The position numbers and the translations under genes are program-made. From an uncultured Chlamydiae bacterium (GTDB lineage Bacteria; Chlamydiota; Chlamydiia; Chlamydiales; Parachlamydiaceae), in NCBI GenBank assembly GCA_963754655.1, contig CAVWGN010000001.1, forward strand, positions 1,824,001-1,888,000: 64,000 nt of DNA. Reading direction: 5' to 3'. The notes under the pieces are model-generated. The model did not search any database. It was given only the letters and a program-made list of their open reading frames with translations, and had not been told where the DNA came from. Below, piece by piece: positions 11,050-13,713 of this stretch. Each line of letters opens with the position of its first letter. Position 1 is the stretch's first letter.

Positions 11050-13713
11050 TCATTTTTTAAACACAATTTTAGTAGGCAGGCTTTCAATGTTACCGATTAA
11101 CGCAGTGACAGCATAAACGGTACGAGCTCTCTTTTTTCTATTATGATCTTTAAAGACCAATTTCGCATGAGCTGGAATTTTCGCGATTAAGTGTCCGTTT
11201 CGATATAAGTAATAGGCAGTGACTCCTGGAGTGGAGCTTGGAGACCACTTCACGATATTAATAAGATCTGTTTGAGTTGCAAAACGATTTTTTACTTGTG
11301 TGACATGGATGTGTTTAGGTGGCTTCGGCTTGGGAGGAAAGGGAATTGAAAAATAGGTGAATTGGGTGCACGTTTGTTCAGGAGACATGCCTGTTGGCGT
11401 AGTAACTGTTACATAGACTGCCCCTATTCCAGGAGGTGAAATAGCAGTAATTGTGCCATCAGGATTGATCGTAAAAGAGGCAGCAGGAGTTCCGCCAAAA
11501 GAGACTGCAGTGACTCCTGTTAAATCGTCTCCTGCTAAAGTAACGACTGTCCCTCCTTTCTCTGGTCCGTTAGTTGGAGAAAGACAAAAATTGGGAATGG
11601 GTAAAGAAAGATAGGTAAATAAATCGCAAAATTGTATCGGAGAGATTCCGAATGGTGTCATAACTGTTACATAAACTGATCCTGTTCCAGGAGGTGAAAC
11701 AGCAGTAATTGTGCCATCAGAATTGACCGTAAAAGAGGCAGCAGAAGTTCCTCCAAAAGAGACTGCTGTTGCCCCTGTTAAAGAATTCCCAGTTAGGGTG
11801 ACTGTTGTTCCTCCTGCCTCTAGTCCATTATCGGGGAAAATACAAAAATTTGGAATCAGAGGAGGAACATAAGTGAATAGAATGCACGGTTGTTGTAGAG
11901 AAGCTCCAAATGACGTTGTGACTGTTACATAAACTGATCCTATTCCAGGGGGTGAAACAGCAGTAATTGTACCATCAGGATTGACCGTAAAAGAGGCGGC
12001 AGGAATTCCTCCAAAAGAAACTGCTGTTGTTCCTGCTAAATTATCTCCTGTTAAAGTCACTATTGTTCCCCCCACTTCTGGCCCGCTACTTGGGGAAATG
12101 CAAAAATCTGGAACAAAAGGAGGAATATAAGTGAATAAATCGCATATTTGTTTTGGAGAAGTTCCAGCTGATGTGATGACTGTCACATACACGGAACCTG
12201 TTCCAGGAGGCGAAACAGCTTCAATTGAACTATCAGAAAGAACATTAAAAGACGTAGCAAGAGTTCCACCAAAATAGACAGCGGTGGCTCCAGTTAAATG
12301 ACTTCCTGTTAGAATAACTATTGTTCCACCGGCCTCGGGTCCGCTAAATGGAGTGATACAAAACTCAGGAAGGTTATTAGGAAACACCCCTGTAATCGCC
12401 CATATCCGATTATTAAGTCCATCAAAGCCTCTCCAAACCGCTACAACATTTTTGTTGGAACTAATCGCTATTCTTGATTCATCTGCAGGATCAGCCGGCC
12501 CAAAAAGAGTGGCAGTTTGAGCAAGCTGTAAAGTGACAGCGGGAGAATCTGCTTGAATGAGGGGTGAGTTTATACAATTTGCTATTGACCAAATAACCCC
12601 AGCATCAAGTTGATTAATGGCAGCATGCGGACTATAACCATATTCGCTACTTGTTGTAAAATCAGTGGGTTGTGACCAAATATTGGGATCATAGGTACTT
12701 GATTCCGAACTTTGAATAATCGTATTCTCTGAAGGTTCTACATTCAATTGAAGAGACCACGCTGCAATTGCTTGACCATCTAATTCAACTGCAATTTGAG
12801 GTTGATCTGCATCAAAACCTGGAGCAGAAAGATTAATGGGTGGAAACCACATTCCATTTAGTAACGTGGATGCCTGAATAATAAAATTGACGCCATTGGT
12901 TCTTCGCCAAACAGCAATTGCATTTCCTTGTCCGTCAATACCCACTTGAGGGATTGAAGCACTAAGCCCATTTTCTGAAAGTTGAATAGGTGAACTCCAG
13001 CCACTATTTTGATTGAAAGTAGCTCCATAGATGACTCCATTCGAAAGAGAACAACTTCTCCACACAGCTACTGCCTGACCTAATGGATTAACTGCCAGAC
13101 GTGGAGAAACAGATGATACCCCTATTTGTGAAACGGGTACAGGCGAGCTCCACATATTGTTCTTTAATAAGGCACCTTCTATGAAGGTCGAACTTGGATC
13201 ATTAGACAAGGCTTTTTCCCAAATCGCGACTCCATCGCCATTATTATCCACACCAACTTGAGGATATTGAGCATTAAATTCTCCCTTAGAGAGATTGATC
13301 GCAGAAGACCATGTATTTGTAGGCGTTTGAGTCATAGCTGTCTGAATCACGTCATTGTTTCCATTGAATATTGACCAGACTGCAATTGCCTTCCCTGATG
13401 TATTGATAGATAATTGAGGGAGATCCGCGTTTTGGCCTGCTGCCGAAAGATCTACAGAAGGAGACCATGAAGATGTTTGGGAATTAAAAGTAGAGCCTTG
13501 AATGATATAATTTGTTCCGTTAAATCTTGCCCATACAGCCACAGCATTCCCCTCTCCATCTATGGCAACTTGAGGATTTCCTGCGTCCTCTCCTGCATCT
13601 GAAATTGGGATCGCAGGGAAATGCCAAATCACCTCTGCTTCCATGACAGAAAATTTTAGGATTAAAAAAAGAAAAAGAAAATTTAAAATAGATTTAGTAT
13701 TCATATTCCTCAA
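11050..13713 (-). CDS. Exported protein: beta-propeller-like repeats, 4 IPT/TIG domains and a conserved C-terminal domain
   Basis: Signal peptide; PQVAID.GNA.AVW repeats; four ~86-aa P..GP.AGGT.V.LTG...FGG..A.SF...SPPG.G.V.VTV units. Confidence 0.85.
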   Translation of the reverse strand: MRNMNTKSILNFLFLFLILKFSVMEAEVIWHFPAIPISDAGEDAGNPQVAIDGEGNAVAVWARFNGTNYIIQGSTFNSQTSSWSPSVDLSAAGQNADLPQLSINTSGKAIAVWSIFNGNNDVIQTAMTQTPTNTWSSAINLSKGEFNAQYPQVGVDNNGDGVAIWEKALSNDPSSTFIEGALLKNNMWSSPVPVSQIGVSSVSPRLAVNPLGQAVAVWRSCSLSNGVIYGATFNQNSGWSSPIQLSENGLSASIPQVGIDGQGNAIAVWRRTNGVNFIIQASTLLNGMWFPPINLSAPGFDADQPQIAVELDGQAIAAWSLQLNVEPSENTIIQSSESSTYDPNIWSQPTDFTTSSEYGYSPHAAINQLDAGVIWSIANCINSPLIQADSPAVTLQLAQTATLFGPADPADESRIAISSNKNVVAVWRGFDGLNNRIWAITGVFPNNLPEFCITPFSGPEAGGTIVILTGSHLTGATAVYFGGTLATSFNVLSDSSIEAVSPPGTGSVYVTVITSAGTSPKQICDLFTYIPPFVPDFCISPSSGPEVGGTIVTLTGDNLAGTTAVSFGGIPAASFTVNPDGTITAVSPPGIGSVYVTVTTSFGASLQQPCILFTYVPPLIPNFCIFPDNGLEAGGTTVTLTGNSLTGATAVSFGGTSAASFTVNSDGTITAVSPPGTGSVYVTVMTPFGISPIQFCDLFTYLSLPIPNFCLSPTNGPEKGGTVVTLAGDDLTGVTAVSFGGTPAASFTINPDGTITAISPPGIGAVYVTVTTPTGMSPEQTCTQFTYFSIPFPPKPKPPKHIHVTQVKNRFATQTDLINIVKWSPSSTPGVTAYYLYRNGHLIAKIPAHAKLVFKDHNRKKRARTVYAVTALIGNIESLPTKIVFKK

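Follow-up and report, generated by a model that had tools for sequence, protein, structure and literature searches.

The stretch analysed here (the window) comprises 64,000 nucleotides from an uncultured Chlamydiae bacterium of the family Parachlamydiaceae (contig CAVWGN010000001.1 of assembly GCA_963754655.1) and encodes two exported proteins, carriers A and B, that end in a common C-terminal domain, hereafter the tail. Both genes lie on the minus strand. Carrier A (11050..13713) has 887 aa when read from its TTG start and 884 aa from an ATG three codons in. It is composed of a predicted Sec signal peptide (residues 1-26, 13636..13713), a head of tandem internal repeats (12379..13635), a stalk of four IPT/TIG domains (PF01833, E 9.5e-29; 11353..12357, end approximate), a Pro-rich linker and the tail (residues 798-887, 11053..11322). 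The head has no Pfam match and, judging from its sequence, may adopt a beta-propeller-like fold. Carrier B (60748..62931, 727 aa) follows the same order, with a predicted Sec signal peptide (residues 1-21, 62869..62931), an ice-binding-like head (PF11999, E 3.7e-60; 62269..62835), three DUF11 stalk domains (PF01345; 61096..62235, limits approximate), a Pro-rich linker and the tail (residues 625-727, 60751..61059). Signal peptides were called by eye, as in these two carriers, and by a crude hydrophobicity rule.

The tails of A and B are identical at 37 of 81 positions (46% over 81 aa, E 4e-20), while the heads (residues 1-446 of A against 1-224 of B) gave a best E value of 3.2 and the stalks belong to different families. 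The likeness of the tails is real and far beyond chance. A long, weak alignment over the full length of both proteins, obtained without composition correction, was rejected as compositional; it runs through the Thr/Gly/Ser-rich stalks. An earlier note on this DNA had described two unrelated exported proteins with a common tail, and both open reading frames (ORFs) and the tail motifs it quoted were found in place. Each tail has a net charge of +13 and an intact hairpin motif (in A, N-x-F-A-T-Q-T-D at 11266..11289; in B, at 61003..61026). A second motif reads D-H-N-R-K in A (11134..11148) and D-H-N-P in B (60862..60876), where the family has D-H-N-R.

The tail was modelled by AlphaFold2 as seven strands with a predicted local distance difference test score (pLDDT) of 92.5, and both fold searches returned fibronectin type III (FnIII) domains, for instance fibronectin 3t1w with Z 12.3, a root-mean-square deviation (rmsd) of 1.8 and 86 aligned residues. 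The model is thus a seven-stranded FnIII sandwich, in line with the FnIII-like basic tail of the earlier note, and it shows weak structural likeness to the FnIII modules of glycoside hydrolases. At the sequence level the tail scores below the cut-off of every Pfam and NCBIfam model. Pfam fn3 matches one of the 11 tails of this genome, below cut-off only, and the weak RGI_lyase and fn3 matches were rejected as family assignments since they reflect the fold. Searches of the ESM Atlas with the tail and with the barrel described below returned only unnamed or generic FnIII clusters and generic barrel clusters. The family can be recognised by a long, protruding hairpin (N-x-F-x-T-Q-T-D) that connects strands 1 and 2 and by the D-H-N-R loop before strand 6. 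Nine proteins contain the domain in tandem. In these, all 9 terminal copies but just 1 of the 22 internal ones have the hairpin motif, which was defined from terminal copies; the sole internal case (P0094) is a protein of 1736 aa in which two entire carriers are fused head to tail.

A hidden Markov model (HMM) built from the two tails and iterated converged on 11 proteins of the source genome (G000; contigs of 3.12 Mb and 35 kb, 96.7% complete). These matched at E <= 3e-34, a bound that includes the training sequences, and the next match had E 1.7. The best match among reversed ORFs had E 0.44, and a 77-row tail model recovered the same 11 proteins. Ten copies end 0-25 aa from the stop codon; the eleventh (C1:2890759-2893983) directly follows the signal peptide and precedes nine Big_2 domains. 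The carriers are up to 2100 aa long, 10 of 11 have a signal-peptide-like start by eye, and their heads and stalks are varied, including lactonase-type and SBBP propellers, Kelch repeats, and TIG, Big_3_5, PKD and carboxypeptidase-regulatory domains. One copy (C1:2658490-2659521, minus strand; L008) starts inside TIG repeats, lacks a signal peptide and has a shortened hairpin; it is probably a decaying carrier fragment.

Tail matches were found in 199 of 401 Chlamydiota genomes, in 37 of the 45 other genomes of the source genome's own family and in 33 of 151 Babeliota genomes, with one to more than 11 matches per genome. None was found in the 30 genomes of family f4, whose listed genomes measure 1.0-1.2 Mb and which is probably Chlamydiaceae. 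A scan of GTDB with the exact motif, which is strict and may miss carriers in other phyla, returned 54 loci. HMM matches were obtained at 49 of them, all from Chlamydiota, Babeliota or entries labelled 'uncultured bacterium'; the other five (Saccharibacteria, Chitinophaga, Alteromonas, Photobacterium and Ignavibacteria) were not matched by the HMM and were set aside as chance hits. The earlier note had called the domain lineage-specific; its distribution spans two phyla, Chlamydiota and Babeliota. A search of 1.84 billion representatives gave counts of 27,841 (E <= 0.001), 9,039 and 739, which do not correspond to family size as they are swamped by generic tandem FnIII proteins, the main constituent of the best 150.

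The profile also matches ordinary internal FnIII repeats because the tail itself has this fold. Such internal hits had been named in the earlier note as a ground for refutation. However, the generic repeats do not exceed 49 bits per domain and are without this hairpin, and the anchoring reading is therefore not refuted by them; 12 of 13 family-like proteins score 70-113 bits and the thirteenth 49. Position was analysed in 114 unique carriers taken from the best-scoring fetched loci, some of them near-duplicates and some cut at the 5' end: 107 have the tail within 30 aa of the stop codon, three directly after the signal peptide, and four are cut by the sequence end. C-terminal placement is thus the rule without being universal, given the copies that follow the signal peptide (in the source genome, one of 11). 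Pairing with signal peptides was borne out, as the permissive rule was positive in 75 of 82 complete carriers versus 482 of 1275 background ORFs. Two Babeliota proteins (L126:921-1394, plus strand; L137:948-1457, minus strand) consist of little beyond signal peptide and tail and are possible caps or decoys for free barrels. In a 1.5-Mb Babeliota genome (G401) the domain is matched 32 times, among others in a 1387-aa frame that contains a long tandem array of it, but there are only two barrels.

When the ORFs around tails were clustered, a single family of outer-membrane barrels dominated: its 17 proteins represent 16 genome groups, against six genome groups for the cluster ranked second. The lower-ranking clusters consist of ABC ATPases and passenger fragments. 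No second recurrent neighbour (protease, Slam or secretin) was found among the clustered ORFs. Hence, of the two kinds of co-occurring gene that the earlier note had anticipated, the beta-barrel was recovered and the protease was not. The barrel proteins, of about 200 aa, begin with a signal peptide and finish in G-x-G-x-x-F, and their gene often abuts or overlaps the carrier gene. They were modelled as 8-stranded barrels with a short helix in loop 1 (pLDDT 91.1), closest to NspA (Z 18.6, rmsd 2.4, 147 aligned) and OmpW (Z 18.3, rmsd 2.6, 167 aligned); two of ten members score above the cut-off of PF13505. In all 17 neighbour cases the barrel has an ORF of its own, of about 200 aa, so that passenger and barrel are not on one polypeptide; a search for longer forms found no fused barrel-passenger proteins, which is weak evidence. 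No barrel relative was found in PLSDB plasmids.

The source genome has two barrels for its 11 tails, both on the plus strand and outside the window. One (C1:786328-787116) lies 340 bp upstream of a carrier, the other at C1:472436-473104. The barrel of this genome groups in the tree with Parachlamydiaceae barrels. At C1:784715-791157, as in L110 and L119, the barrel stands beside a gluconate-6-phosphate-dehydrogenase-like gene (named by eye). Since the relatives keep this barrel position without a carrier within 1.5 kb, the source genome seems to have gained its carrier by insertion next to a barrel already in residence. Two Chlamydiota barrels cluster together with one from Babeliota (G406) at a support of 99/94 (L142, L014, L015), and the adjoining tails have a common variant hairpin, R-Y-P-T-Q-T-D. 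This suggests either whole-cassette transfer with co-variation of the pair or a binning error. A test of the Babeliota barrels as one clade gave an approximately unbiased p value of 1e-6 but left out two unassigned rows nested inside the Babeliota group, which confound it; therefore, no direction of transfer is drawn.

Tail and barrel occur largely in the same genomes. The barrel matches 201 of 400 Chlamydiota genomes (the tail sample, with one genome not scored), of which 176 have both, 23 only the tail, 25 only the barrel and 176 neither (phi 0.76). The association holds inside families f1, f3, f6, f8, f9 and f30. For instance, the counts of both, tail only, barrel only and neither are 40/2/5/22 in f6, 49/9/2/30 in f9, 13/4/3/15 in f8 and 37/1/4/4 in f1. 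It does not hold in f17 (2/4/0/2), and family f4 has neither component. In 151 Babeliota genomes both occur in 31 (7.9 expected), the tail only in two, the barrel only in five and neither in 113 (phi 0.87). Gene order agrees: of the 50 strongest Babeliota barrel matches, 40 have a tail no more than 5 kb away. In 34 of the 50, from 27 genomes, the barrel sits directly downstream of a same-strand tail, at a distance below 300 bp.

A complex was modelled for an overlapping gene pair of a relative (L029) using a 35-row barrel alignment and the 77-row tail alignment. The interface score ipSAE was 0.83, 0.82 and 0.82 in three runs (median 0.82), whereas the best of three controls scored 0.00; at least 98% of contacts agree between runs and the pLDDT of the partners is at least 86. 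Among solved pairs 116 of 157 attain the score mark, as against 2 of 215 among mismatched ones, a calibration that is only rough with our own alignments. The predicted tail contacts, residues 16-27 and 68-74, coincide with the two family motifs. In carrier A the main contact corresponds to the hairpin motif and the second contact patch to D-H-N-R-K. Conservation reaches 87-92% at F20, Q23, D25 and H70 of the tail, and the tail interface is more conserved than the remainder (0.62 versus 0.48, p 0.015). On the barrel, the contacts (residues 16-21, 54-63, 94-107 and 141-156) fall on the four long loops and adjoining strand ends and include the invariant Y21 and T61 and the near-invariant I20, S54, S100 and V103 (89-94%). 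The long loops of OmpA-type barrels face outwards. To our knowledge, no complex of a like kind has been solved. On the strength of the models and the genomic association, tail and barrel are very probably partners, and the tail is predicted to bind the barrel directly on its outer face.

We consider it likely that the two form a two-part, non-covalent surface anchor for interchangeable adhesins, in which the tail docks on the outer-membrane barrel. The carriers would be exported by Sec, as their predicted signal peptides indicate, and would then cross the outer membrane in folded form, most likely via the type II secretion system encoded by both phyla; this is the weakest step. The barrel, judging from its fold and C-terminal Phe motif, would be inserted by the beta-barrel assembly machinery (BAM). 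Outside the cell, the hairpin (F-x-T-Q-T-D) and the D-H-N-R loop of the tail would bind the four outer loops of the barrel, and the Ig-like stalk would hold the head away from the cell, with the anchor always at the stalk end opposite the head. Being a folded domain rather than a processed end, the anchor can sit at either terminus, and the N-terminal copies fit a stalk-base anchor better than a cleaved C-terminal tag. Anchoring or docking is accordingly favoured over a cleaved export tag by the three of 114 carriers with the domain after the signal peptide and by the predicted interface on the outer loops. One or two barrels can suffice for the many carriers of a genome, which would make A and B 'orphan' clients of barrels encoded elsewhere. 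The heads (beta-propellers, ice-binding fold, Kelch repeats) are probably adhesins or host-contact proteins. In these respects the earlier proposal of an export or anchoring domain that serves a modular surface-protein repertoire is supported, and the co-occurring barrel extends it to an anchor of two components.

For the passage across the outer membrane, type II secretion is the route that we favour, though with modest confidence. The source genome has two secretins, one in a gsp-like cluster with pseudopilin, ATPase and platform ORFs and the other beside type III genes (by eye). Two secretins were also found in all five Babeliota genomes tested, in agreement with the portion of PMC4776705 available. 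Chlamydial type II secretion is described as carrying Sec-exported proteins (PMC6717882, in part). The presence of the machinery in both phyla and this cargo make it the likeliest route, although presence is no proof of use.

Several points weigh against the anchor. The modelled pair comes from a relative and not from the window proteins, the score calibration is rough as noted, and the conservation of the barrel interface (0.56 versus 0.50 elsewhere, p 0.11) is not significant. An F-x-x-Q/E motif is missing in 3 of the 11 tails of the source genome and in 8 of 77 tails overall. Tails without a barrel match were found in 23 Chlamydiota and two Babeliota genomes, and the reverse in 25 and five. 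Most genomes are metagenome-assembled, and eight (barrel) or 11 (tail) candidates per genome were scored. The genomes are also related, so that p values are overstated and weight is placed on effect sizes and adjacency instead. The Chlamydiota adjacency count is itself partly circular because the barrel family was found among tail neighbours, and the rows used to train the barrel model included a locus (L064) that nests among Babeliota. Fasciclin, an unrelated exported family used as a control (phi 0.10 overall, 0.04 within f1), is a limited one, being present in few families only and absent from f6, f8 and f9. Finally, the only link of the pair to type II secretion is the presence of the machinery, and TamB is present in all five genomes tested.

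The arrangement resembles the type B substrates of the T9SS (type IX secretion system) with their PorP/SprF barrels, such as SprB-SprF and PG1035-PorP, which combine a signal peptide, a variable adhesin passenger and a C-terminal domain (CTD) that is conserved. According to the available text of PMC12618676 and PMC9143113, the barrel gene there often lies directly downstream of the CTD gene, orphan substrates exist and non-covalent anchorage has been proposed. The parallels here are the downstream barrel gene (34 of 50 in Babeliota) and the orphan substrates (11 tails and two barrels in the source genome). In contrast, our tail is an FnIII domain of about 100 aa where type B CTDs are described as having 150-235 aa, the barrel is 8-stranded and OmpA/NspA-like (PF13505-like), the domain also occurs N-terminally, and the phyla differ. 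At E <= 1 in NCBIfam none of the 11 tails matches TIGR04183 or TIGR04131, and their Pfam matches include no Por-tail family. SprA_N (PF14349) was not found in G000 or G401 but was found in the Bacteroidota controls G555 and G556; PorP_SprF (PF11751) was likewise not found in these two genomes but was found in G555, not in G556. The system thus works like T9SS type B but, by these sequence comparisons, is not a member and has no family in common with it. Type A CTDs (PorV/PorU) are also C-terminal seven-stranded beta-sandwiches of about 100 aa recognised by a barrel (PMC12618676, in part). However, they are cleaved and their cargo is linked to anionic lipopolysaccharide (A-LPS), whereas no translocon marker was found here and the N-terminal copies argue against obligatory C-terminal processing.

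Other systems share single features. The Myxococcus adhesin CglB reaches the surface independently of its GltA/B/H barrels and is then retained by them, but it is a von Willebrand factor A (VWA)-domain lipoprotein in a multi-protein motility machine, and no multi-passenger tail is described in the available part of PMC9946355. The partner has the fold of the OmpA/NspA/OmpW/Opa-type 8-stranded barrels (PF13505); it differs from other members as a distinct subfamily with a loop-1 helix and long outer loops predicted to take a protein hairpin. PEP-CTERM, GlyGly-CTERM, MYXO-CTERM and LPXTG tags combine a variable passenger and a conserved C-terminal signal with a membrane helix and a processing enzyme. 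The tail, in contrast, is all-beta and globular without a membrane helix: the top 19-residue hydropathy in the last 120 aa of the carriers is 1.81, one of 114 exceeds 1.8, and no protease recurs as a neighbour. The tail is hence no tag of the PEP-CTERM/LPXTG type, which the earlier note had cited for its layout. Unlike in autotransporters (types Va and Ve), passenger and barrel are separate ORFs. Overall, a known logic of conserved tail plus cognate barrel is built here from unrelated parts.

A more far-reaching reading, which we regard as doubtful, assigns the tail the part of substrate signal and the barrel that of dedicated outer-membrane component in a secretion-and-display pathway not described before, with the barrel needed for passenger exit. 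Such a pathway would be convergent with T9SS type B and common to two host-dependent phyla, apparently by gene exchange; in the chlamydial family with small genomes (probably Chlamydiaceae), whose members use Pmp autotransporters, it was not found. It is likewise unlikely that the barrel combines docking with a role as export shuttle and that the tail is a true secretion signal, with the tail captured during insertion by BAM or the translocation and assembly module (TAM), as in split-autotransporter or piggy-back schemes, or with substrates collected from the pore as by PorV or SprF. The carrier-then-barrel order in 34 of 50 Babeliota cases matches the type B substrate/shuttle order described in PMC12618676 (in part). 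The source genome encodes two Omp85 proteins and TamB, and the N-terminally anchored carriers with nine Big_2 domains resemble inverse-autotransporter passengers. However, the predicted contacts all lie on outer loops, an 8-stranded barrel has no protein-sized pore, in the source genome one or two barrels would have to handle 11 carriers with lengths of up to 2100 aa, and type II secretion already exists in both phyla.

It is improbable that the basic tail instead binds an anionic envelope polymer (lipopolysaccharide or capsule) or a host glycan, with the barrel merely co-regulated in the same cassette. The net charge of both window tails, the FnIII fold and the weak likeness to glycoside hydrolase modules would suit this, and the FnIII-like CBM37 of Ruminococcus albus, reportedly a surface anchor there, would be a precedent. 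CBM37 is also a lineage-restricted, FnIII-annotated module on many secreted proteins, including non-catalytic ones, but its description sets it apart by a Gram-positive host, a carbohydrate ligand and no partner barrel (PMC4300822, in part). Polymer or glycan binding leaves the specific predicted complex, the terminal-only hairpin and the two-phylum co-occurrence unexplained, and the D-H-N-R loop of many Babeliota tails has few basic residues by eye. Binding in trans between cells, for aggregation or kin recognition rather than self-anchoring, is highly improbable. An outer-face interface cannot tell cis from trans, and the R-Y-P-T-Q-T-D hairpin that travels with one barrel clade suggests pair specificity; however, the carriers lack another anchor, as at most 1 of 114 shows a hydrophobic segment within its final 120 aa, which makes cis anchoring the simpler reading. 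That the tail is an ordinary mobile FnIII spacer spread by recombination, as its canonical fold and the 27,841 profile matches, with mostly generic tandem FnIII proteins among the best 150, might suggest, is scarcely credible against its terminal position, terminal-only motif, gene linkage, co-occurrence and predicted complex.

Other genes of the window deserve mention. On the same strand, 35 bp downstream of carrier A, lies a gene (8252..11014, minus) for a 920-aa protein with a signal peptide, a GH81 C-terminal domain (PF17652, E 1.3e-26) and no tail, possibly a co-transcribed secreted beta-1,3-glucanase; a DDE transposase (PF01609; 6544..7671, plus) is found about 0.6 kb from it. Two exported low-complexity proteins rich in Q/N/S/G/Y (14032..14976 and 15054..15953, both plus) have no Pfam match, and similar-looking proteins are grouped at C1:475453-477894, close to the second barrel. 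The product of 26218..27954 (plus) has nine DUF4116 repeats. It opens, by eye, with an F-box-like stretch, as do that of 34845..36110 (minus) and others in the genome; the two are typical candidate host-interaction proteins.

The display of host-contact proteins by environmental chlamydiae and Babeliota is poorly described. A literature search, with most subscription papers and supplements outside its scope, returned no description of the tail or of the tail-barrel pair. The available portion of a chlamydial outer-membrane survey (PMC2811131) reports autotransporters to be over-represented in Chlamydiaceae relative to an amoeba symbiont and does not mention the pair. One HMM now defines a whole class of candidate adhesins, and the predicted residue-level interaction is testable with two small recombinant proteins. 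A tag of about 100 aa that snaps onto a barrel of about 170 aa could also serve as a surface-display tool. If true, the anchor would give host-dependent bacteria a means, not described so far, of displaying interchangeable adhesins, and it would represent an independent invention, from unrelated folds, of the T9SS-like logic of conserved tail plus cognate barrel.

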